From positions 1-64,000 of the IMG/VR virus record IMGVR_UViG_3300025121_000776: a DNA stretch of 64,000 nucleotides; one strand, written 5' to 3'. A program made the translations under genes and the position numbers. Positions 2,567 through 27,306 of the stretch are shown here, one piece after another. Numbering within the stretch: position 1 is the stretch's first letter; each line of letters opens with the position of its first letter. The notes beneath the pieces are model-generated. The model was not told where the DNA came from. It did no database searches and saw only the letters and a program-made list of their open reading frames with translations. Origin of the DNA: a virus.

Positions 2567-3283
2567 ATGATAGTTGGAAACGGAATGTTGGCAAATGCAT
2601 TTAATCAATATATAAATGATGACAAAATCATTATATTCGCATCTGGAGTGTCTAATTCAAAAGAGCAGAATGATAAAGAGTTTGAAAGGGAATTTGAGCT
2701 GCTAAAATCTTTTTCTGTAACACATAAAAAACTGGTATACTTTAGTACATGTAGTATATTTGATGAAAGTCTTTTAGCTTCTAAATACATAAAACATAAA
2801 ATAAAAACAGAGACATTTATAGAAAAGAGCTTCAAAAATTATTTAATCTTAAGATTGCCAAATGTTGTTGGTAAAACAAATAATGCAAACACCTCTTTTA
2901 ATTATTTTAAAAACAAAATTTTGAAAGGGGAACGTTTGGAATTGCAAGAAAACGCCACACGGTATTTCATAGACATTGATGATTTAGCTGCTATTTTACC
3001 TTATATTATTTCTGACGAAAAAGAATTCAATAAAAGTATAAATATTTGTTTTAACAATAAAATTAATGTTATAAATTTAGTCTTATTGCTTGAAAGTTTT
3101 CTTGAAACAAGAATAGATAAGTCCCCAATTGAAGGCGGAAAAGATTACAATGTAGATAATTTATATTTTATGAACATTGTAGGTGATAAAAAAATTAAAA
3201 TAAACAAAGAATATAATAATAACTTAATAAAAAAATATCTAAAAACTAATTATGGGAACAATTATTTACACAGAAATATATAA
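2567..3283 (+). CDS. NAD-dependent epimerase/dehydratase-like (short SDR)
   Basis: IVGNGMLA Rossmann-like start, FASGVSNS, YFSTCS, YxxxK (YIKHK), ILRLPNVVG. Confidence 0.6.
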   Translation: MIVGNGMLANAFNQYINDDKIIIFASGVSNSKEQNDKEFEREFELLKSFSVTHKKLVYFSTCSIFDESLLASKYIKHKIKTETFIEKSFKNYLILRLPNVVGKTNNANTSFNYFKNKILKGERLELQENATRYFIDIDDLAAILPYIISDEKEFNKSINICFNNKINVINLVLLLESFLETRIDKSPIEGGKDYNVDNLYFMNIVGDKKIKINKEYNNNLIKKYLKTNYGNNYLHRNI

Positions 3284-4181: not shown

Positions 4182-4982
4182 ATGAAAACCATTAAAGTAT
4201 ATTGTAGTTTTGGTTGGACTTTTGATTTTGAGCATGAAAAACAAATTGAATTATTTGTGGACATGTATCAGTGCCAATTGGCAAGTAATGATGCTGTAAA
4301 AGTTTTACTTCTTATAGAATCATCCGCAATAATTAAAAACATCATTGAGTCAGCAATTCAAAATCATCATTTATTTGATTATATACTAACTTTTGATGAA
4401 GATGTCTTGAAAAGTTGCAAAAACGCTTATCTTTTTGAGTATGGTACAACATTTCTAAAAGACCCATTTGAATTCACGGAAAAAAAATTTAGTGTATCTA
4501 CAGTAGTTGGTGGAAAGAATGAAACAACAGGACACCTTATGAGGCATAAGTTATGGGAAAGACAAGAACAAATAAAAATTCCTAAAGATTTTTTTTTAAG
4601 CGGAACTTTCCCTGGAGAAATTAAACACGCAAGAAACACACAAACGCTGGGAGTTGAAAAAAACATTTTATTTGACAGCCAATTCCACATAGCAATAGAA
4701 AATATAAAAAGAGATTATTATTTTACAGAAAAGCTTATCGATTGTTTAAAAACAAAAACAATTCCAATATATTATGGAAGCAAGGAAATTGGAAACTACT
4801 TTAATAAGGAAGGAATGTATATTGTCAATAGTGTTGATGAAATAATTGATGTATGTAATAATTTAACGGAAAACACATATAATGAAAAAATTAAATTTAT
4901 TGAAGAAAATTTTGAGAAAAGCAAAAGATTCTGGGACTATAAAGAAGCTATAAAAAACAAACTAAAAGAATTAATTAAATAA
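4182..4982 (+). CDS. GT10-like (fucosyltransferase-like) glycosyltransferase
   Basis: FHIAIEN...YFTEKLIDC...TIPIYYG motif typical of the GT10 C-terminal domain. Confidence 0.7.
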   Translation: MKTIKVYCSFGWTFDFEHEKQIELFVDMYQCQLASNDAVKVLLLIESSAIIKNIIESAIQNHHLFDYILTFDEDVLKSCKNAYLFEYGTTFLKDPFEFTEKKFSVSTVVGGKNETTGHLMRHKLWERQEQIKIPKDFFLSGTFPGEIKHARNTQTLGVEKNILFDSQFHIAIENIKRDYYFTEKLIDCLKTKTIPIYYGSKEIGNYFNKEGMYIVNSVDEIIDVCNNLTENTYNEKIKFIEENFEKSKRFWDYKEAIKNKLKELIK

Positions 4983-11327: not shown

Positions 11328-11930
11328 ATGGATAATTTAAAAACAATAGATACTAGATTATCTGACCACATTAGAATGGTTATAGATATTATGAAAAATG
11401 ATAAAATAACTAAAACAATTAGTTCCACTGCTGAAACTATTATTAAAGCTTTAAAAACAAAAAAAAAGGTATTAATATGCGGTAACGGCGGCTCTGCTGC
11501 CGATGCTCAACATATTGCCGCTGAGTTATCTGGCAGATTTAGATTTGATAGAAAACCTTTGTTTGCTGAAGCATTACACACTAATAGCTCTTACTTAACT
11601 GCGGTTGCTAATGATTATGGTTATGAGTTTATATATTCTAGACTATTAGAATGCATGAGTAATTCTGGTGATATACTAATTGGAATTTCCACTTCTGGAA
11701 ATTCTAAGAACATTATAAATGCTATGATTGAAGCTAGAAAACAAAATATGATTATCGTTTCATTAACTGGTGAAACTTTTAATGAAATGGATAAGTTAGC
11801 TGATTATTCAATTAAAATTCCATCTACCGATATTGCCAGAATTCAAGAAGGACATATATTGGCTGGCCATATAATATGCGAGATAATAGAAAATAAACTT
11901 TTTAATAATGAATACAAACGGACTAACTAA
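11328..11930 (+). CDS. gmhA: Sedoheptulose-7-phosphate isomerase (SIS domain)
   Basis: ICGNGGSAADAQHIAAEL, TAVANDYG, ISTSGNS, IQEGH motifs. Confidence 0.9.
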   Translation: MDNLKTIDTRLSDHIRMVIDIMKNDKITKTISSTAETIIKALKTKKKVLICGNGGSAADAQHIAAELSGRFRFDRKPLFAEALHTNSSYLTAVANDYGYEFIYSRLLECMSNSGDILIGISTSGNSKNIINAMIEARKQNMIIVSLTGETFNEMDKLADYSIKIPSTDIARIQEGHILAGHIICEIIENKLFNNEYKRTN

Positions 11931-17179: not shown

Positions 17180-18373
17180 ATGAAAAAACCAGAAAATAAA
17201 ATACCTTTATTTAAGGTGTATATGAGCGAAGACGTTATTAAACCTCTATCAGAAGTTTTAATGTCTGGATATATAGGACAGGGGGCAAAAGTAGAAGAAT
17301 TTGAAAAAATTTTAAAAGAATACCTGCAAAATTATTTAGTTGTAACAACAAATGCTGGAACTTCTGCTGCGCATTTAGCATTAAGATTGTTAAAAAATCC
17401 AGCTGAAAATACTGAATCATATTTTGGAACAGCGTTTATTTCAAAAAAATGGTCTGGAATAAATGATGGCGATGAGGTTCTTGCGACTCCGCTGACCTGC
17501 ACGGCATCAAATTTTCCAGCTTTAGCAAACGGAATGAGAATAAAGTGGGTTGATGTAGATTCAAATACTTGTAACATGGATTTAGAAGATTTGGCAAGAA
17601 AAATAACTCACAAAACAAAGATTATAATTCCAGTTCACTGGGGCGGATACCCAAACGATTTAGACAAAATAAAAGAAATTCAAGAAAAAGCAGAACATAT
17701 GTTTGGATTTAAACCAGCTGTCATAGAAGATTGTGCCCACGCATTTGGCTCAACTTATAAAAACAAAAAAATTGGAAACCATGGCAATGCTTGTTTCTTC
17801 AGCTTTCAAGCAATAAAACATTTAACTACTGGGGATGGCGGAGCATTAGTCTTACCGCACAAAGAATTATATGATAGAGCAAAATTATTAAGATGGTATG
17901 GAATTGATAGAGAAACGAATTCTAAAGATTTTAGATGTGAAGATGATATCGCAGAATGGGGATACAAATTTCATATGAATGATATTAATGCAACTATTGG
18001 AATTCACAATTTTCCACACGCATTAGAGGTTGTAAAAAAACATCAAGAAAATGCTAATTTTTATAATGAAAATTTAAAAAATGTTCCTGGAGTCACATTA
18101 ATGGAAAACAGCCCAGACAGAAAATCATCCTATTGGATTTATACAATAAAAGTAGAAAAACGTGATATGTTTATGGATTATATGAAAGAATGTAACATTA
18201 TGGTTAGTAGGGTTCACGAAAGAAATGATAAACATTCTTGTGTTAAAGAATTCAAAGCTATTCTACCAAATTTAGATAAACTTACACAGGAGATGATTTG
18301 TATTCCAGTAGGATGGTGGATTACATCAGAAGAAAGGCAATATATTGTTGATTGTATTAAAAAAGGGTGGTAA
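17180..18373 (+). CDS. DegT/DnrJ/EryC1/StrS sugar aminotransferase
   Basis: NAGTSAAHLA, PVHWGG, IEDCAHAFG, SFQAIKHLTTGDGG with the catalytic Lys present. Confidence 0.9.
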   Translation: MKKPENKIPLFKVYMSEDVIKPLSEVLMSGYIGQGAKVEEFEKILKEYLQNYLVVTTNAGTSAAHLALRLLKNPAENTESYFGTAFISKKWSGINDGDEVLATPLTCTASNFPALANGMRIKWVDVDSNTCNMDLEDLARKITHKTKIIIPVHWGGYPNDLDKIKEIQEKAEHMFGFKPAVIEDCAHAFGSTYKNKKIGNHGNACFFSFQAIKHLTTGDGGALVLPHKELYDRAKLLRWYGIDRETNSKDFRCEDDIAEWGYKFHMNDINATIGIHNFPHALEVVKKHQENANFYNENLKNVPGVTLMENSPDRKSSYWIYTIKVEKRDMFMDYMKECNIMVSRVHERNDKHSCVKEFKAILPNLDKLTQEMICIPVGWWITSEERQYIVDCIKKGW

Positions 18374-18928: not shown

Positions 18929-20882
18929 GTGTCAAAAAAATACTCAATACAACTAGTTCAGTTTAATAACAAATATGGTTCACAAGTTTACCTACCATAT
19001 AGCATTGGGATTTTATCTAGTTATGCTTTAGCAGATAAGGAAATTTTAGACAAATTTGAATTTAAAGAATTTATTTCTATTATAGAAAGTGTTCCCGACT
19101 TAGTAAAAAAAATAGGACATTCTTGGAATTTCTTGTTATAATTGGAATTGGGAATTAAGTTTAAAATTGGCAGAAGAAGTAAGAAAAACAAATCCCAATT
19201 GTTTAATAATTATGGGTGGTCCACAAATTCCTAATGAAATTTCTAATTTTTTTGAACTACACCCATTTGCTGATATTGCTGTGCATGGAGAGGGAGAAGT
19301 GACTTTTCATGAAATATTAAAAAAATATTCTTCAGACCTAAGCAATCTTAAAAAAATACCTGGAACCACATTTTATGACAGAAAAAATAATAAAGTTATA
19401 AAATCTTTACACAGGGATATAATTTCTGACCTTAATATTATACCCTCACCTTACTTAAGTGGAATATTTGACAAGTTGTTGGATGATAGAGAATATGCAT
19501 GGATGATAACCTGGGAAACTAATCGTGGATGTCCGTTTAAATGTACTTTTTGCGATTGGGGTTCGGCCACAGAATCTAAAGTTAGAAAATTTGATAACGA
19601 TAGATTATTAAAAGAATTGGATTATTTTTCAGAAAAAAAAGTTGAACTTATATTTGGAGCAGATGCTAATTTTGGCATATTCAAAAGAGATAAAGAATAC
19701 GCAATAAGAATGGCCGACAACAAAGAGAAGTGTGGATATCCAAAACAATTTAGAGTTTGTTTTACAAAGAACTCTACAGATAAAGTTTTTGAGTTATCTC
19801 AAATTTTTGATAAAGCTAGAATGAACAAAGGGGTGTCAATAAGTATGCAGTCCTTAAACACACAAACTTTACAAAACATCCAAAGGACAAATATAAAAAT
19901 GGATTTTTTCAATGAGTTGCAAAAAAGATATAATGCGCATGGGCTTACTACATATACTGAATTGATTTTACCACTTCCAGGAGAAACTTATGAATCATTT
20001 ATTGATGGAATAGATTTACTTCTTGACAATTCACAACATTCTGGAATTGTTGTTTATAATTGTGTGGTAATGCCAAACGCAAAGATGGGAAATGCGCAAT
20101 ACAAAGAGAAATTCGGCTTAAAAACAACAAAAATCCCCATCTTCCAAGCTCACTCTGATTTTAAAAATTCATTTGATGTAATAGAAAAAGAAGAACTTGT
20201 TATTGAAACTAAAACTATGAATAAGTTTGATTATATAAAGTCTTTTAAGTATAGTTGGATAGTTCAGAGCATGCATATGTTGGGGACTTTGCAAATTGTT
20301 GCCATTGTATTTAGATATCATTTTGGAATTAAATATTCAGAATTTTATAAAGGAATTTTAGAATATGGAAAATTAAATCCCCAGACTATAATTGGAAAGG
20401 AAATTAAAAAAATTGATGAAATATTAAATGGAGTATTGGGTGGAAATGGGTTTGAACAAGAGATTGAAGAGTTTGAATCTATAGTTTGGCCACCAGAAGA
20501 AGCTACATATTTAAGAGTTTCTGAAAATATTGACAATTTTTATTCAGAAATAGGAGATTTTCTGTACAAAAAGTATCACAACCTTTTTAAAGACAATGAA
20601 ATTCTAAACGATATATTAAAATATCAAAAAATAATAAATGTAAGATTTGACAACCAATCTAATAAAACAATTTCTTTATCTTATGACATTCATAATTTTT
20701 TTGAAGATTGTAGAGTGGGAATTTTTAATGAACTCGAAAAAAAAGAAGTCAGCATCTCAATTTTTCCAAGCACATCATTTAAAAACAAAAAAGACTTTTC
20801 AAGAGAAGTCGTTTGGTATGGGAGAAAAGGAGGAAAATTTTTCCACTCAGCAAAAGAAATAACAAAAGTTAACACAATATGA
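18929..20882 (+). pseudogene. Cobalamin-binding radical SAM enzyme split by a frameshift near 19113-19116
   Basis: 18929..19141 encodes the B12-domain start (YLPYSIGIL); the +1 frame from 19116 reads DILGISCYNWNWELSLKLAEE into the 19167..20882 ORF with NRGCPFKCTFC. Confidence 0.75.
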
Positions 20883-21673
20883 AACAGATTATAAATTCTT
20901 ACACATATCCAGACTTCCCAAATATAGAAGTTGATTATAAAAAACAAATAAGATTTTTTGTTGATGGGTTTGAGGGCTATTACGTAAATGAAGATAGTTT
21001 TAAAATACTAATGGTAAAAGAGGTTGAAGAAATATGTAAACTTAAAAAAGTTGTAATAGAAAATCAACATATGTTTGACGCTATATTAACTTATGATGAA
21101 GATATTTTAAATAATTGTAAACATTCATATTTTATGCCATTTGGTACCACCTGGATTCACGATTATAAGTTTCCAGAAAAAAAATTCCAAGTATCAAATA
21201 TTACAGGACACAAAGAATTTACAAATGGACATTTGTTGAGAAAAAAAATACATTATAAACAAAAAAGCATAACAACCCCAACAGATTTTTATATAAGTAA
21301 ATTTCTTGGAGTAGAAAATTTTAATAATAACAAAATACTTGGAGAGTTTAAAGACCCCCTTTTTGACTCACAATTTCATATTTGCATAGAGAACTCAAGG
21401 CAGAAAAATTGTTTTACAGAAAAAGTAATGGATTGTTTTGTTACAAAAACAGTTCCCATATACTGGGGATGTCCAAATATTGGAGATTTTTTTGACACAG
21501 ACTCAATTTTCATCGTTAATAATTTTAAAGAGATTATAGACTGTTGCAACAACTTAACATCAGAAACTTATCAAAATATGCTTCCGTCAATAGAAAAAAA
21601 CCTTGAGCTATCAAAAAACTATTCTGATTCAGTCGATAATATTAAAAAAATACTCAAAAAGATTTTATATTAA
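20879..21673 (+). CDS. GT10-like glycosyltransferase, paralog of 4182..4982
   Basis: FHICIEN...CFTEKVMDC...TVPIYWGC motif. Confidence 0.7.
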   Translation: MKQIINSYTYPDFPNIEVDYKKQIRFFVDGFEGYYVNEDSFKILMVKEVEEICKLKKVVIENQHMFDAILTYDEDILNNCKHSYFMPFGTTWIHDYKFPEKKFQVSNITGHKEFTNGHLLRKKIHYKQKSITTPTDFYISKFLGVENFNNNKILGEFKDPLFDSQFHICIENSRQKNCFTEKVMDCFVTKTVPIYWGCPNIGDFFDTDSIFIVNNFKEIIDCCNNLTSETYQNMLPSIEKNLELSKNYSDSVDNIKKILKKILY

Positions 21674-21714
21674 AAATAATTTTTATTATATTCTATAAAA
21701 ATTATTTTTAATAT
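21667..21714. repeat. Perfect 20-bp AT-only inverted repeat spanning the GT10 stop and GT11 start
   Basis: ATATTAAAAATAATTTTTAT (21667-21686) / ATAAAAATTATTTTTAATAT (21695-21714), 8-nt loop; includes TAA 21671-21673 and the AT of ATG 21713. Confidence 0.75.
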
Positions 21715-22501
21715 GGATAAAGTATCTGCAAAACTTAAGGGCGGATTGTGTAATTACATGTTTCAAATAGCATGTGCGTATTCTTATTCTATAAAAAACA
21801 ACAAAGAGTGTTTTTTTACAACAGATGATTCTGTGGTAAGGCACAATCATGTAGATAATTATAAAAACAATGTTTTAAATAATGTAGTTTTTCTTAACAC
21901 CTACAACTTCAATTCTTTTGCAAAGTATAATGAGCCTCATTATTACTATACAGAAATTCCTAGTTTTAATGATAATGTATATTTAGATGGAGATTTTCAA
22001 AGTGAAAAACACTTTAAGAAAAATGAAAAAGAAATTAAAACACTTTTTTCTTACCCCAACGAAGTAGTAAGTAAAATTGTAAACAAATGGGAGCATTTAC
22101 TAAAAAAAGAAACATGTTCTATTCACATAAGAAGAGGAGATTATCTAAAATATCAAGATGCTTATACAATTTTGGGTTTAGATTATTATTTAAAAGCGTC
22201 TGAACAAATGCCAGAAAATAGTATTTTTCTCATTTTTTCCGATGATTTACAATGGTGTAAAGACAATTTTCCAGAAATTCCAGAAAAATTTATTTTTATA
22301 GAGTCACAAAAGGATTATGAAGATTTATTGCTCATGTCTTTGTGTAAAAATAACATAATTTCAAATTCATCATTTTCTTGGTGGGCAGCCTGGCTTAACT
22401 CAAATGAAAATAAAATTGTCATAGCTCCAAATAAATGGTTTAGTGTTAAGTCTTCTTATAATACTAAAGATTTGTATTGTGATAATTGGATAAAATTATA
22501 A
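21713..22501 (+). CDS. GT11 alpha-1,2-fucosyl/colitosyltransferase
   Basis: LKGGLCNYMFQ, YLDGDFQSEKHF, SIHIRRGDY, FLIFSDD..WC, IISNSSFSWWAAWL. Confidence 0.85.
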   Translation: MDKVSAKLKGGLCNYMFQIACAYSYSIKNNKECFFTTDDSVVRHNHVDNYKNNVLNNVVFLNTYNFNSFAKYNEPHYYYTEIPSFNDNVYLDGDFQSEKHFKKNEKEIKTLFSYPNEVVSKIVNKWEHLLKKETCSIHIRRGDYLKYQDAYTILGLDYYLKASEQMPENSIFLIFSDDLQWCKDNFPEIPEKFIFIESQKDYEDLLLMSLCKNNIISNSSFSWWAAWLNSNENKIVIAPNKWFSVKSSYNTKDLYCDNWIKL

Positions 22502-22510
22502 ATTAAATAT

Positions 22511-23434
22511 ATGAAAGCAATAGTAACAGGCTCAAATGGGCTTTTAGGCTCAGCGTTAAAAAACAATTTAGGAGAGGGACATATTTATCACACTAGACAA
22601 AATTGTGATTTATTAAGAACAAACGAGGTAAATTCTTATTTCTCAGAATTAAGCAGTAAAAATCCCCCAGATACAATTATACATTGTGCAGCAAGAGTTG
22701 GGGGCGTACAAGCCAATATGGATAATAATAAAGGCTTTTTCTTAGAAAATCTTTATATAAATAATGCCATAATTGGCGCAGCAGTTGTTTATGATTATAA
22801 AAATGTTGTAAATATTTTATCTACCTGTATTTTTCCAGACAAAGAGGTTATATATCCACTGACCGCAGACCAAATTGATAACGGGACTCCCCACCCATCA
22901 AATCATGGCTATTCTTATTCAAAAAGACTTTTATATCATTCCACAAGATACTGCAGAGAGGTTACGGGAAACAATTGGATTTCTATTATTCCAAATAATA
23001 TTTATGGAGAAAATGATAACTTTAATTTAGAAAAAGGTCACCTGGTTCCTGCTTTAATAAGAAAAGCGCATGAGGCATCTATTTCTGGGGAAGATTTTAT
23101 TGTATGGGGAGATGGAACTCCATTGAGACAATTTTTATATTCAGATGACCTGGCAAAAGTTATTTTGTGGGCTATTGAAAATTGGGATTCTGGCGTTCCT
23201 ATGATGGCTGTAAACGAAACTGAGTATTCTATTAAACAAATCGTAGATGTCATCGCAAATCGCTTTAAAATAAGCCAGGATAGAATTAAATATGATATTA
23301 CCAAACCAAAAGGACAATTTAGAAAACCAGCCAAGTCAGATATCCCAAAAGAATTCAAACTTACAGGAATTGAAGAAGGGTTAAACAAAACAATAGATTG
23401 GTATTTAAAAAACATAAATAACTTTAGAAAATAA
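22511..23434 (+). CDS. fcl: GDP-L-fucose synthase / ColC-like epimerase-reductase
   Basis: TGSNGLLGSA, HCAARVGG...N, STCIFP, YSYSKR, PNNIYG..DNF, HLVPALIRK, WGDGTPLRQFLYSDD. Confidence 0.85.
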   Translation: MKAIVTGSNGLLGSALKNNLGEGHIYHTRQNCDLLRTNEVNSYFSELSSKNPPDTIIHCAARVGGVQANMDNNKGFFLENLYINNAIIGAAVVYDYKNVVNILSTCIFPDKEVIYPLTADQIDNGTPHPSNHGYSYSKRLLYHSTRYCREVTGNNWISIIPNNIYGENDNFNLEKGHLVPALIRKAHEASISGEDFIVWGDGTPLRQFLYSDDLAKVILWAIENWDSGVPMMAVNETEYSIKQIVDVIANRFKISQDRIKYDITKPKGQFRKPAKSDIPKEFKLTGIEEGLNKTIDWYLKNINNFRK

Positions 23435-23435
23435 T

Positions 23436-24602
23436 ATGGCAAAAATTACTTTAGTAAGCGATACAATTAACAGGGAAGATGTTAATGCTTTAATAGAATG
23501 GTTACAACAAGACCCAATTCCAAGGCTAACAAAAGGTGACCTCACCGTTTCGTTAGAAAAAAAATGGGCAAAAAAAGTTGGAACAAAATATTCTGTATTT
23601 GTAAACTCTGGTTCATCGGCTATTTTGTTATTATTAGCAGCGTTAAAAGAAACTGGAAAATATAGCAACAAAATAATATGTCCAACCCTTAGCTGGATAA
23701 CAGATATAAGTTCTCCTATATTACTTGGATTTGAACCTATATTGTGTGATTGCAATTTGGAAGATTTATCTTGTGATTTAAACAATTTAGAACAAATATT
23801 CAAAGAAAACCAGGGCGATAAACCAATGCTGTTTATTTCTGTATCTCCTTTAGGAATAGTGCCTAAGATGAAAGAAATTCTAGAATTGTGTGAAAAATAT
23901 AATGTAAAATTATTAGAAGATAATTGTGAAAGTATGGGGTCTAAATATAGTGGGCAGATGCTTGGCTCATTTGGTTTAGCATCTGTTTATAGTATGTATT
24001 TTGGACACCATATCTCAACAATTGAAGGGGGTCTTATAAATACCAGTGATGATGAACTAAATACGATTTTGTTAGCAATGAGAAGTCATGGATGGAATAG
24101 AGATTTGTCATCTGAAGCCAAACAAAGCTTAAAAAAAGAATGGAATACTTCTGACTTTGACGAATTGTATTGTTTTTATTATCCAGGATTAAATCTACGT
24201 TCCACAGACGTTCAAGCATTTATTGGATTAAGGGCAATAGAAAAATTAGATTCTTATAGCGTGCTTCGCAATAGAAATTTTTGCTATTATCAAGATTTAA
24301 TAAAAAATAATAAGCTTAAGCTAGAAAATAGAGAAAGCTCATTTATTTCAAATCTTGGATACCCAGTAATTCACAAAGAAAGAAATGCTATTGTGGATGA
24401 ATTACAAAAAAACAAGATAGAAGCTAGACCATTAATAGCAGGCTCAATAGCTAATAAGCCGTTCTGGATAAAAAGATATGGAAAAACTACATTCCCGAAT
24501 GCAGATATAGTAGATAAGTTTGGACTTTATTTACCAAATCATCAAGATTTATCTTTGGAAGACATAACTTTTATTTCAAATATTATTAATAAATTTTCCT
24601 AA
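23436..24602 (+). CDS. colD: ColD-like GDP-4-keto-6-deoxymannose 3-dehydratase (DegT fold, His in place of catalytic Lys)
   Basis: [29 protein letters not shown] (H at the Lys position), RSHGWNRD without the E1 GRDCxC Fe-S motif. Confidence 0.75.
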
Positions 24603-24661
24603 TTTTATCTTTAATTTATTATTTTCTGTTGCTATATTTTAATTGTTTAAACATAAAATAT

Positions 24662-25693
24662 ATGCAAAAGAAAGTTTTAATATTTGGAATTACAGGTCAA
24701 GATGGTTCGTATTTATCTGAATTGCTATTAGAAAAAAATTATGAAGTTCATGGAGTGATTAGAAGAAGTAGTTCTTTTAACACAAGAAAAATAGACCACA
24801 TTTACGATAAATTAAAATTACATTACGGAGATGTAACTGACCCCCTTGTAATTTCTAATCTACTTGATAAAATACGCCCAGATGAAGTTTATAATCTTGC
24901 CGCACAATCACATGTTCAAGTGTCTTTTGAAATTCCGTATTATACGGGGCAAGTAGATGCAATAGGAACGTTAAACATTTTAGAAGCAATAAAAAACCAT
25001 TGCCCCAAATCAAAGTTTTACCAAGCATCAACTTCCGAGCTCTTTGGCAAAGTTCAAGAAACTCCACAAAAAGAAACAACTCCATTTTATCCAAGAAGTC
25101 CATATGGTGTAGCAAAGTTATACGGATATTGGATTGTAAAAAACTTTAGAGAAGCTTATGGAATGTTTGCGTGCAACGGAATTCTATTTAATCATGAAAG
25201 TCCAAGGCGTGGATTGACTTTTGTCACCAGGAAAATTACATCCGAATTAGTAAGAATAAAGTACGGTGACAAAACTACTACATTAAAACTTGGAAACTTA
25301 GAGGCACAAAGAGACTGGGGGCACGCAAAAGAATACGTGGAAGGAATGTGGAGAATGTTACAACAAAACGAACCAGAAGATTTTGTATTGGCTACTGGAA
25401 AACTCTGTTCCGTTAGACAATTCATTGAACTTGCTGCAAAAGAATTGGATTATGAGATTGAATGGATAGGTGATGGAATAGATGAAAAAGGATATGACAA
25501 AATAACTGGTAAATTATTAGTTGAGATTGACCCAAAATATTTTAGACCAACAGAAGTTGACTTGCTTTTGGGAGACGCTACCAAAGCAAAAGAGAAGTTG
25601 GGCTGGGAACCAAAAATAAAATTTGAAGACTTGGTTAAAGAAATAATAAAAGGCGACATTGAACAACTTGTAAATTATGGAAAAATAGAATAA
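24662..25693 (+). CDS. gmd: GDP-mannose 4,6-dehydratase
   Basis: [59 protein letters not shown]; ATG at 24662 preferred over TTG 24629. Confidence 0.95.
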
Positions 25694-25695
25694 AT

Positions 25696-25726
25696 TTTGT
25701 ATTTCTATTTTTATTTTATATATTTG
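25696..25726 (+). promoter_or_regulatory. Bacteroidota-type primary-sigma promoter (-33/-7)
   Basis: TTTG 25696-25699, 19-nt spacer, TATATTTG 25719-25726; ATG at 25747. Confidence 0.65.
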
Positions 25727-25746
25727 CCCAAATAAAAACAATAGAC

Positions 25747-27306
25747 ATGAAATTTAAAGACTTAACAGAAAACGACATTAATTATGCAAGAAAAATTTAT
25801 AAAGACAATTCTTTATCTTGGGACACAAGAATGTTAACGCTAATGAATTTTTTTAATAAAGGAGAGCGCACTGTAAGGAAATGGTGTTCTGAAAAATTAG
25901 GCTTTGCCGAAAAAAACGAAGTACTTCCAGAGCAACTAGAAGTTGCAAAACAAAAACAACATGATGTAAGTAAAAAAAGATTTTTGATTACTGCGGCACA
26001 AAATGCAACCAAAATAAATGTAGGGTTTTGGAAAAATTTGCAAGTATATGCAGAACATATTGGAGCAGAAATTTTAGTAATTCCATATAGATATCACAAT
26101 CCCACTAGTATTATTTTAGAAACAGATAAAAAACAAGAGTGGTGGGATGATAAAATTATTCCATATTTAACTTTAAATAGACATGACCTAAACAATAAAT
26201 TAACTGTACTTAGCAACGTTAAGATTCAGCCTACTGCAATGCTTCCATTGCAAAATCTCGAATCACTTTGTAGAGAGTCGTGTATAGTAGGGCATCCTAG
26301 AGTGCATATGAAATCTTTACCAGTTATAGATGATAAACCAAGAATTATGTTTACAACTGGCAATTTAACTAAACCAAATTTCACCGATTCAAAAATTGGG
26401 CATATTTCAGAATTTCATTTAACATATGGCGCTGTAATTGTAGAAATAAAAGATGAAGAAACTTTTTATGCAAGACAAATAACTGCAAAAGATAATGGCA
26501 ATTTTAATGATTTATATTGGAATGTTAATGATGGAAAAGTAACAAGAAATCACGAAGTATCAGCGGTAATTAAAGGTGATATACATTATGGAGCTCATGA
26601 CGAAAAGGTTATTAATAGGTCATTTTCAGAATTGATTCCTAAATTAAATCCTAAAGAAATATTTTTACACGATTTAGCAGACTTTAAAAGCATTAATCCA
26701 CACGAAGAAAAAAACTGGATTCAACAATATAGAAATGAAGTAGAAGAAGTAAGTTCATTAAAGAATGAAATTGAAAAAATACTAAATTTCTTAGATACTA
26801 TTAAAAAATATAACTTAGTTATTGTTTTTTCTAATCACGATAACTTCCTTGATAGATTTATTATCAACGCAGACCCTAAAAAAAATATAAAGAATGCATT
26901 TGAGTTTATTGAATACGCAAAAGTTTTATTAGAAAATAAGGCTCCAAACGGACTTCTGGGGTATATAATAAATCAAAAATTTCCAAATATTAAATGTTTA
27001 CCCAGAGACGGTTCATATAAAGTAAAGGGGTGGGAATTAAGTAAACATGGAATGGATGGTGCAGGAGGGTCTAAAGGAGGTATTCAACAATTTAAACGCC
27101 TAAACACAAAAATTGTAACTGCTCACTCACACGGTGTAGCAAGATTTGATGGTGCGGTACAAGTTGGATGTAATTGTAAATTAAGACAGGGCTATAATCA
27201 TGGAGCATCTGATTGGGTACACTCAGATGTTATCATTCATAACGATGGAAAGTGCCAAACTATTTTATATATCGGAAAAAACGCAGAATTTACTACTTTT
27301 GAATAA
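25747..27306 (+). CDS. Calcineurin-like metallophosphoesterase with N-terminal HTH (T5 A1-like)
   Basis: ITAAQNAT, GDIHYG, HDLAD, SNHD, KHG, AHSH motifs; GERTVRKW HTH-like segment. Confidence 0.65.
   Translation: MKFKDLTENDINYARKIYKDNSLSWDTRMLTLMNFFNKGERTVRKWCSEKLGFAEKNEVLPEQLEVAKQKQHDVSKKRFLITAAQNATKINVGFWKNLQVYAEHIGAEILVIPYRYHNPTSIILETDKKQEWWDDKIIPYLTLNRHDLNNKLTVLSNVKIQPTAMLPLQNLESLCRESCIVGHPRVHMKSLPVIDDKPRIMFTTGNLTKPNFTDSKIGHISEFHLTYGAVIVEIKDEETFYARQITAKDNGNFNDLYWNVNDGKVTRNHEVSAVIKGDIHYGAHDEKVINRSFSELIPKLNPKEIFLHDLADFKSINPHEEKNWIQQYRNEVEEVSSLKNEIEKILNFLDTIKKYNLVIVFSNHDNFLDRFIINADPKKNIKNAFEFIEYAKVLLENKAPNGLLGYIINQKFPNIKCLPRDGSYKVKGWELSKHGMDGAGGSKGGIQQFKRLNTKIVTAHSHGVARFDGAVQVGCNCKLRQGYNHGASDWVHSDVIIHNDGKCQTILYIGKNAEFTTFE

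Follow-up and report, generated by a model that had tools for sequence, protein, structure and literature searches.

In the first 64 kb of the linear 186,855-base IMG/VR virus record IMGVR_UViG_3300025121_000776 (about 29% G+C; this stretch of 64,000 nucleotides is called here the window), a glycan island of a phage ends in a cassette of five intact, tightly packed + strand genes, which encode a GT10-like glycosyltransferase, a GT11 glycosyltransferase, a reductase of the Fcl/ColC family of short-chain dehydrogenases/reductases (SDR), a DegT-fold protein with His in place of the catalytic Lys, and the GDP-mannose 4,6-dehydratase Gmd (Table 1). Judging from its sequence, the cassette most likely converts GDP-mannose of the host to the 3,6-dideoxy sugar colitose, which would be attached to a phage-built glycan. 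More specifically, we find it fairly probable that a plug-in sugar 3-dehydratase of the ColD type turns a phage GDP-fucose cassette into a GDP-colitose one, with donor-tolerant GT11 and GT10 enzymes transferring the product. Colitose is regarded as a rare O-antigen sugar of few Gram-negative bacteria, and our full-text literature searches combining colitose with phage or virus terms, judged mostly by title, returned no report of a phage-encoded pathway. The chemistry and the enzyme families are already known from the colitose pathway of E. coli, Salmonella, Yersinia, and Vibrio; what differs from the known systems are the divergent dehydratase and reductase lineages, the gene order, the lack of GDP-mannose supply or Wzx/Wzy genes, and the phage setting.

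The argument starts from the DegT-fold protein of about 388 residues, which matches Pfam PF01041 (6.3e-54) and whose best Protein Data Bank (PDB) matches are four ColD entries (from 5e-53 for 2gms, residues 31–383, to 1e-51), followed by lesser matches to E1 (3e-33) and to the perosamine synthase PerA (9e-26); the sequence match of 5e-53 to solved ColD fixes its fold. Over its full length, it is 32% identical to the ColD of E. coli O111, taken from the annotated O111 genome. In alignment A1, its His191 corresponds to His188 of E. coli ColD (FYSHHIATMEGG) and stands in the column that holds the catalytic Lys both in E. coli PerA and in a neighboring aminotransferase of the window (QAIKHLTTGDGG), the latter as an earlier note on this DNA had claimed. 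The window protein and the 18 further relatives of the phage clade that were aligned with it all have this His. When 1.84 billion representatives were searched with the same protein, 537 proteins were retrieved at E<1e-30, and in the similarity neighborhood around it, 136 of 141 sequences have His in the catalytic column. The literature agrees with the meaning given to this replacement in the earlier note: the known 3-dehydratases are E1, ColD, and SpnQ, all three with His for Lys, and E1 and SpnQ hold a [2Fe-2S] cluster by means of four Cys, while ColD alone has no Fe-S cluster and recycles its pyridoxamine phosphate (PMP) with glutamate (PMC8987622).

The absence of an E1-type Fe-S motif, also claimed earlier, was confirmed as well, given that the window protein reads HGWNRDLSS where E. 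coli ColD reads HGWTRNLPK. In RfbH-type phage proteins, the motif is WGRGCYC, and an insertion of about 15 residues after it holds further Cys; the window protein has no Cys at the E1 Fe-S positions and no E1 insertion, and it has the EDNCESMG and HGW.R..L motifs in common with ColD. The RfbH model NF011936 gives it 168.6 bits against a cut-off of 423, compared with 447 bits for a phage E1-like protein (L227:8727-10037). An E1/RfbH identity was therefore rejected on the score below the cut-off, the missing Cys motif, and a position outside the E1-like clade. NCBIfam has no ColD model, and the genuine E. coli ColD also matches just RfbH and PseC, both below their cut-offs, so the lack of a named NCBIfam match is uninformative.

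The phylogenetic placement was obtained with quick IQ-TREE or FastTree searches. In an IQ-TREE tree of 59 rows, rooted on Lys-type aminotransferases and with supports from the Shimodaira–Hasegawa-like approximate likelihood ratio test (SH-aLRT), the His-type proteins form one clade (97) and the E1-like proteins another (98). The canonical ColD clade (11 rows, 89), which includes E. coli O55, O111, and cellular relatives, and the sister clade that contains the window protein (35 rows, 99) jointly exclude the E1-like proteins with a support of 99, and a FastTree of 141 rows gave the same placement. The assignment to ColD thus stands as far as the grouping with ColD apart from the RfbH-type E1 is concerned, and it has to be narrowed in that the protein belongs to a sister clade, outside the characterized ColDs. 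In short, the predicted 3-dehydratase is ColD-like in every sequence feature tested, yet it lies outside the characterized ColD clade.

The genes around it are those that a colitose pathway needs downstream of GDP-mannose. The GT11, Fcl/ColC-like, DegT-fold, and Gmd genes follow each other as four intact + strand open reading frames (ORFs), as the earlier note had described them, with intergenic gaps of 9, 1, and 26–59 nt from GT11 to Gmd, and a simple terminator scan of this run found no + strand terminator-like site inside it. Only the start of Gmd had to be changed: instead of TTG 24629, it is most likely ATG 24662, the start called on near-identical contigs, which gives a protein of 343 residues. 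Gmd itself scores 531 bits with TIGR01472, above the cut-off of 415, is 59% identical to Gmd of E. coli O111, and in the PDB comparison reaches 466 bits against Gmd entries and 112 bits against the GDP-manno-heptose 4,6-dehydratase 7us5; these scores mark it as a true GDP-mannose dehydratase and not one of the heptose type. The reductase matches Pfam Epimerase (2e-40), and its top PDB match is human GDP-fucose synthase (1e-58), with E. coli Fcl at 4e-38; the NCBIfam GDP-L-fucose synthase model NF047922 scores 178.6 bits on it, below a cut-off of 500. Its Ser104/Tyr134/Lys138 align with Ser107/Tyr136/Lys140 of E. coli Fcl, and its Cys106/His177 with Cys109/His179; the triad and the Cys/His pair, which we take to be the catalytic and epimerization residues of E. 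coli GMER (Fcl), are invariant in the 19-sequence alignment A2 of this SDR lineage. In a genome-wide search of the 186.8 kb, this SDR and Gmd were the only two Epimerase-family matches; a 238-aa ORF at 2567–3283 gives a weak partial match to the Pfam Epimerase family (1.1e-6).

This arrangement recurs in many other phages. Relatives of the ColD-like protein are encoded in at least 312 stretches returned by a pattern scan of IMG/VR, of which the best 80 were taken as ColD-seeded loci. The catalytic His is present in 80/80 of these, Gmd in 64/80, and a consecutive SDR-ColD-Gmd run, often with overlapping stop and start codons, in 51/80; GT11 occurs in 39/80 and a GT10-like gene in 33/80, often adjoining GT11. 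The same SDR-ColD-Gmd arrangement is also found on phage-like contigs of 227–301 kb with PhoH or T4 gp13-like genes. Among GenBank phages, the top match has 32% identity and belongs to the cultured Synechococcus phage ACG-2014f. Among the species genomes of GTDB, 44–59% identity to the ColD-like protein is reached by only a few metagenome-assembled genomes, Acidobacteriota among them, and in these nearest cellular relatives, Gmd and SDR adjoin the ColD-like gene; the remaining matches are the ordinary ColD family (30–37% identity, in the order Gmd-ColC-ColD). The proposal of the earlier note that the phage makes and transfers colitose is thus supported, as a prediction, by the signature of a His without Fe-S site, by the grouping with ColD (99 SH-aLRT), and by the coupling to Gmd and an Fcl-family reductase (51/80).

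The ColD-like gene is also a variable element. Starting instead from the reductase, 80 SDR-seeded viral loci contained a ColD-like gene in 37 cases and none in 43. The SDR tree has three viral clades, of which one is always ColD-linked (46 rows), one is mostly ColD-less, and the one of the window holds 28 ColD-linked and 6 ColD-less rows; on this tree, ColD linkage must have switched at least 8 times, and well-supported branches force 6 of these switches. In the pair of loci L209 and L210, a clean ColD-like insert of 1.14 kb, between an SDR gene (81% nucleotide identity) and a Gmd gene (85% nucleotide identity), is present in L210 only. Among related phages, the ColD-like gene is a clean presence/absence insert of about 1.1 kb between reductase and Gmd.

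Several points weigh against a colitose product. The ColD-like protein is only 32% identical to characterized ColD and falls in a sister clade without characterized members, other branches of which have no Gmd nearby. ColD sequence alone does not fix the substrate, because canonical-clade members of C. jejuni use heptose. The reductase is no closer to ColC than to Fcl (30–31% identity to ColC of E. coli O111/O55 and 30% to Fcl of E. coli O157, which are themselves 39% identical to each other), the relatives closest to it beyond its clade, at 61–65% identity, occur in Gmd-SDR pairs without ColD, and no ColC signature columns were found when ColD-linked reductases (cellular ColC, viral clade A, and the window's clade) were compared with ColD-less ones. 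Finally, no ManC-type nucleotidyltransferase was found in the 186.8 kb of the record, about 57% of the genome by the CheckV estimate; the cassette called complete-looking in the earlier note looks complete only from GDP-mannose onward, and manC or a second reductase may sit in the part of the genome outside the incomplete record. Neither identity nor tree could separate ColC from Fcl, since the SDR is equidistant and its clade mixes ColD-linked with ColD-less members. We also discarded the residue after the catalytic His as a ColC marker (Val in Fcl and viral clade B, Met in cellular ColC, Phe in viral clade A, Met/Leu in clade C, and Leu in the window), which shows a parallel tendency too weak to use.

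A first rival reading is a cassette for GDP-L-fucose only. In it, the reductase would be an ordinary Fcl, and the ColD-like protein would have no activity or belong to another pathway of the island; as a variant, it might slowly transaminate to a 4-amino sugar, which SpnQ does when its reductase is missing. In favor of this reading, the SDRs of the ColD-less pairs, at 61–65% identity, are named GDP-L-fucose synthase by automatic pipelines, GT10 and GT11 are fucosyltransferase families, and sets of Gmd, Fcl, and fucosyltransferases have been annotated before in a phage, cyanophage S-SCSM1 (PMC9602691). However, the ColD-like gene is intact, with its catalytic His kept clade-wide, and dozens of phages have it at exactly the same place between SDR and Gmd, frequently with overlapping start and stop; moreover, inteins in relatives target the ColD-like active-site motif, a typical intein site type, and neither ColD nor E1 had aminotransferase activity under conditions where SpnQ had it (PMC8987622). 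We consider a fucose-only cassette unlikely on these grounds. The same reductase raises a second question, namely whether C4 could be reduced without C5 epimerization or with another facial selectivity, giving a D-series or other stereoisomer of 3,6-dideoxyhexose instead of L-colitose. The SDR lineage has no characterized member, and in C. jejuni, swapping the C4-reductase after the ColD-type step gives four 3,6-dideoxy stereoisomers (PMC10440746). Such an outcome seems improbable to us, given that Cys106, His177, and the Ser/Tyr/Lys triad match E. coli Fcl and are conserved throughout alignment A2, and that the donors of the GT11 and GT10 families are beta-L-configured GDP-sugars.

As to the starting sugar, the GDP-3,6-dideoxyheptoses of C. 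jejuni are made with ColD homologues that are 62–67% identical to E. coli ColD (PMC10440746), and the island of the window includes a GmhA-like SIS protein (Table 1) that could feed a GDP-3,6-dideoxyheptose pathway like that of Campylobacter jejuni HS:5, whose heptose C3-dehydratases belong to these ColD homologues. We regard a heptose substrate as very improbable. Gmd is far closer to the GDP-mannose dehydratases than to 7us5 by the scores given above and passes the Gmd equivalog cut-off, the 186.8 kb gave no HddC/ManC-type nucleotidyltransferase, the Pfam scans of island ORFs gave no sugar-kinase family, and the C. jejuni route has a separate epimerase and reductase and no Fcl-type bifunctional SDR (PMC10440746). 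GDP-mannose from the host is taken as the substrate of the cassette because of the orthology of Gmd, its distance from the heptose dehydratase, and the absence of a detected nucleotidyltransferase.

For the transfer step, the GT11 protein is assigned to its family by sequence: PF01531 matches at 7.8e-26 (91.4 bits against a cut-off of 23.9), the protein is 30% identical to WbgN of E. coli O55 over the full length (3e-33), and its HIRRGDY and SNSSFSWW motifs (SNSSFSWWAAWL) align with those of WbgN. That WbgN is a GT11 colitosyltransferase, as the earlier note stated, is borne out by the literature, where both WbgN and human FUT2, also of GT11, accept GDP-colitose and GDP-fucose alike, and the authors conclude that the glycan is dictated by substrate supply (PMC11987014). 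The phage GT11s are likewise not sorted by the presence of ColD, as those from ColD-less loci (only 7 rows) are scattered in the tree and one of them has 71% identity to a ColD-linked GT11. The two GT10-like proteins of the island are paralogues, 44% identical to each other, and match PF00852 with 27.2 bits in the C-terminal part only (the one beside GT11) and with 28.6 bits over part of the profile only (the distant one), against a cut-off of 23.9. The former is probably a second transferase for a GDP-L-deoxysugar, and the latter is a possible further user of a GDP-L-sugar.

From the gene content, residues, phylogenetic placement, conserved synteny, and ColD presence/absence polymorphism observed above, we infer the catalytic steps, as well as the donor and acceptor of the transferases. 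Gmd would oxidize and dehydrate host GDP-mannose to GDP-4-keto-6-deoxy-D-mannose, which the ColD-type enzyme would bind via PMP, with His191 acting as the acid/base that expels the 3-OH; GDP-4-keto-3,6-dideoxy-D-mannose would then be released and PMP regenerated from glutamate, with no requirement for an Fe-S reductase partner. The SDR would next epimerize C5 by means of Cys106/His177 and reduce C4 with NAD(P)H, thereby giving GDP-L-colitose. Any Gmd product escaping ColD would probably be turned into GDP-L-fucose by the same SDR, because its lineage serves ColD-less Gmd-SDR pairs in sister phages, and this favors the suggestion in the earlier note that fucose may be made as well. GT11, and probably the GT10-like enzymes too, would finally attach the L-sugar to a glycan for which the other soluble transferases of the 27-kb island are responsible.

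A simple hydropathy scan of the 29 ORFs between 159 and 27306 found no credible transmembrane segment, so the island enzymes all look soluble, and no Wzx, Wzy, flippase, polymerase, or WecA/WbaP-type polyprenyl-phosphate transferase is recognized in it. With no membrane protein recognized in the island, the sugar would be transferred either to something soluble, for example, a virion protein, or to a lipid-linked intermediate of the host on the cytoplasmic side. Given that the island encodes only soluble enzymes together with a Maf-like protein, the glycan may sit on virion or other proteins and not on a lipid-linked host polysaccharide. As a tentative and rather doubtful extension, the ColD-type gene may be a plug-in switch of large aquatic phages: by gaining or losing it between an Fcl-type reductase and Gmd that stay in place, a phage would change the glycan it builds from L-fucose to the 3-deoxy mimic L-colitose or back with unchanged transferases, the glycan perhaps going directly onto virion or other proteins; if so, colitose would be a device for diversifying the phage surface.

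Compared with known systems, the cassette is closest in predicted chemistry and enzyme families to the colitose pathway of E. coli O55:H7/O111 (Gmd, ColD/WbdK, ColC/WbdJ, and the alpha-1,2-colitosyltransferase WbgN of O55), with which it shares the His for the catalytic Lys, the missing Fe-S site, and a GT11 beside the cassette; in E. coli O111/O55, the ColC (307 aa) and ColD (388 aa) genes are also adjacent, with order and lengths as in the phage. In contrast, the identities are low for ColD (32%), ColC (30–31%), and WbgN (30%) and higher for Gmd (59%), the phage ColD-like protein is in a sister clade, the phage order SDR-ColD-Gmd differs from the Gmd-ColC-ColD common in cells, and, unlike E. 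coli colitose clusters, the phage island is without manB/manC, wzx, wzy, or any membrane protein. Phage GDP-fucose sets (S-SCSM1, PMC9602691, and the ColD-less IMG/VR loci L183, L185, L188, L191, and L217) likewise have Gmd and GT10/GT11 partners, and the ColD-less ones have an SDR of the same lineage (58–65% identity) in the same place beside an A1-like gene; the window has in addition the ColD-type gene between SDR and Gmd, which should divert the pathway to a 3-deoxy product. In the cultured Synechococcus phage ACG-2014f (NC_026927), gp223–gp225 are annotated as epimerase, epimerase, and aminotransferase; they correspond to Gmd (64% identity), an SDR of the Fcl family, and a ColD-like protein of the His type, arranged consecutively and with glycosyltransferases after them, but here the order is Gmd-SDR-ColD, the ColD-like protein is only 32% identical and of another subclade, and the SDR groups with E. 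coli Fcl.

Two further comparisons concern the dehydratase step. E1/RfbH (CDP-6-deoxy-L-threo-D-glycero-4-hexulose 3-dehydrase) has the same DegT fold, His-for-Lys replacement, and C3 deoxygenation of a 4-keto-6-deoxy sugar (PMC8987622), but in the CDP-3,6-dideoxyhexose pathways it requires a [2Fe-2S] site and the reductase E3, and the window protein is without both the Cys motif and the insertion. In C. jejuni HS:5/HS:11, a GDP-sugar 4,6-dehydratase is also followed by a ColD-type C3-dehydratase dependent on pyridoxal phosphate (PLP) and glutamate (PMC10440746), but the substrate is a heptose, the 4,6-dehydratase is distinct, and epimerase and reductase are separate, whereas the window encodes a true Gmd and one Fcl-type SDR.

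If the colitose reading is correct, this pathway is widespread in uncultured large phages, as suggested by the at least 312 IMG/VR stretches with a ColD-like relative, and a cultured cyanophage has it too, under the annotation "aminotransferase/epimerase"; such genes would have to be counted as dideoxy-sugar synthesis and not as generic lipopolysaccharide or fucose genes. The presence/absence polymorphism of ColD would be a natural experiment in which the insertion of a single gene re-routes a nucleotide-sugar pathway, and it is the part most deserving of experiment. The divergent enzymes would also be new catalysts for GDP-colitose and colitosylated glycans, and the finding would bear on what phage glycan islands decorate.

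Among the relatives, other 3-dehydratases were observed as well. E1/RfbH-type Fe-S 3-dehydrases are encoded in other IMG/VR phages (L227:8727-10037, the one scored above, L266:6833-8227, and L251:3688-5004), and a third His-type group of about 381 residues without Cys motif (L041:3986-5131 and L228:8099-9253) adjoins, in several loci, a second, distant Gmd-like SDR. It thus appears that 3-deoxysugar pathways of several kinds exist in phages. Three ColD-like relatives of 838–883 residues (P0124, P0128, and P0143) contain an intein (Pfam Intein_splicing and LAGLIDADG_3) directly after the catalytic His motif, at about residues 192–200 of the window protein, and on a 291-kb contig, the ColD-like gene and Gmd are separated by a free-standing LAGLIDADG/NUMOD3 homing-endonuclease gene (L009:9230-10123). 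In the record of the window itself, but outside the window, an open frame of 412 aa gives a third DegT-family match, which is weak (6.8e-10; G000:C1:126891-127424).

The genome that carries the cassette is that of an uncultured jumbo tailed phage of roughly 270–290 kb, as indicated by T4 gp13-like genes on relative contigs of 277 and 291 kb, by a baseplate-wedge gene in the window, and by the sizes of these contigs. Proteins identical to those of the window are found on the near-identical 277-kb contigs, and an 83%-identical relative is located on the 291-kb contig (L009). The baseplate wedge protein has only 28–30% identity to its counterparts in Microcystis and Flavobacterium phages. The longest contig encoding an identical ColD-like protein (P0001) has 540,462 b, about twice the 277-kb and 291-kb contigs, and it may be a concatemer and not a 540-kb genome.

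Positions 159–25693 form a single + strand glycan island, with the colitose-type cassette at its 3' end. Besides the two GT10-like genes and GT11, the island contains several GT2s, NeuB, a CMP-transferase, a Maf-like protein, aminotransferases, radical SAM enzymes, and methyltransferases. The protein encoded directly after Gmd (p519) has neither a Pfam nor an NCBIfam match and resembles viral "A1 protein"/calcineurin-like phosphoesterase clusters (ESM Atlas, score 0.96). Since a gene of this type follows SDR/Gmd in ColD-bearing and ColD-less relatives alike, it can be seen as the fixed 3' border of a variable island; as a glycan partner, p519 was rejected, since it resembles a T5 A1-type phage protein and marks the island border only.

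Table 1. Genes of the predicted colitose cassette and other features of the glycan island in the window.
Feature	Position	Strand	Remarks
GT10-like glycosyltransferase (fucosyltransferase C-terminal domain)	20879..21673	+	PF00852
GT11 glycosyltransferase (alpha-1,2-fucosyl/colitosyl-transferase family)	21713..22501	+	PF01531
Fcl/ColC-family extended SDR, predicted GDP-4-keto-(3,)6-deoxy-D-mannose epimerase/4-reductase	22511..23434	+	
ColD-type PLP/PMP-dependent sugar 3-dehydratase (predicted)	23436..24602	+	PF01041
GDP-mannose 4,6-dehydratase (Gmd)	24662..25693	+	open frame extends back to TTG 24629
Second GT10-like glycosyltransferase	4182..4982	+	PF00852; same island
SIS/GmhA-like protein	11328..11930		glycan island
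Aminotransferase (Lys-type)	17180..18373		catalytic-Lys motif QAIKHLTTGDGG
519-aa protein (p519)	25747..27306		directly after Gmd; T5 A1-type resemblance

Two minor observations were made on the DNA around the cassette. The 25 nt before six start codons (20850–25750) are A/T-rich and have no GGAGG-like Shine-Dalgarno sequence, which might fit a host without Shine-Dalgarno-led initiation, for example, one of the Bacteroidota. Just upstream of the cassette, the gene of a B12-binding radical SAM methyltransferase (18929–20882) is split: compared with the 99.93%-identical contig L005, the window is without 8 nt after AAAATAGGA (near 19118), either by a frameshift or by an assembly error, and the gene for a protein of 653 residues (GTG 18929) is readable only from TTG 19167, giving 571 residues without the B12-binding N-terminus.

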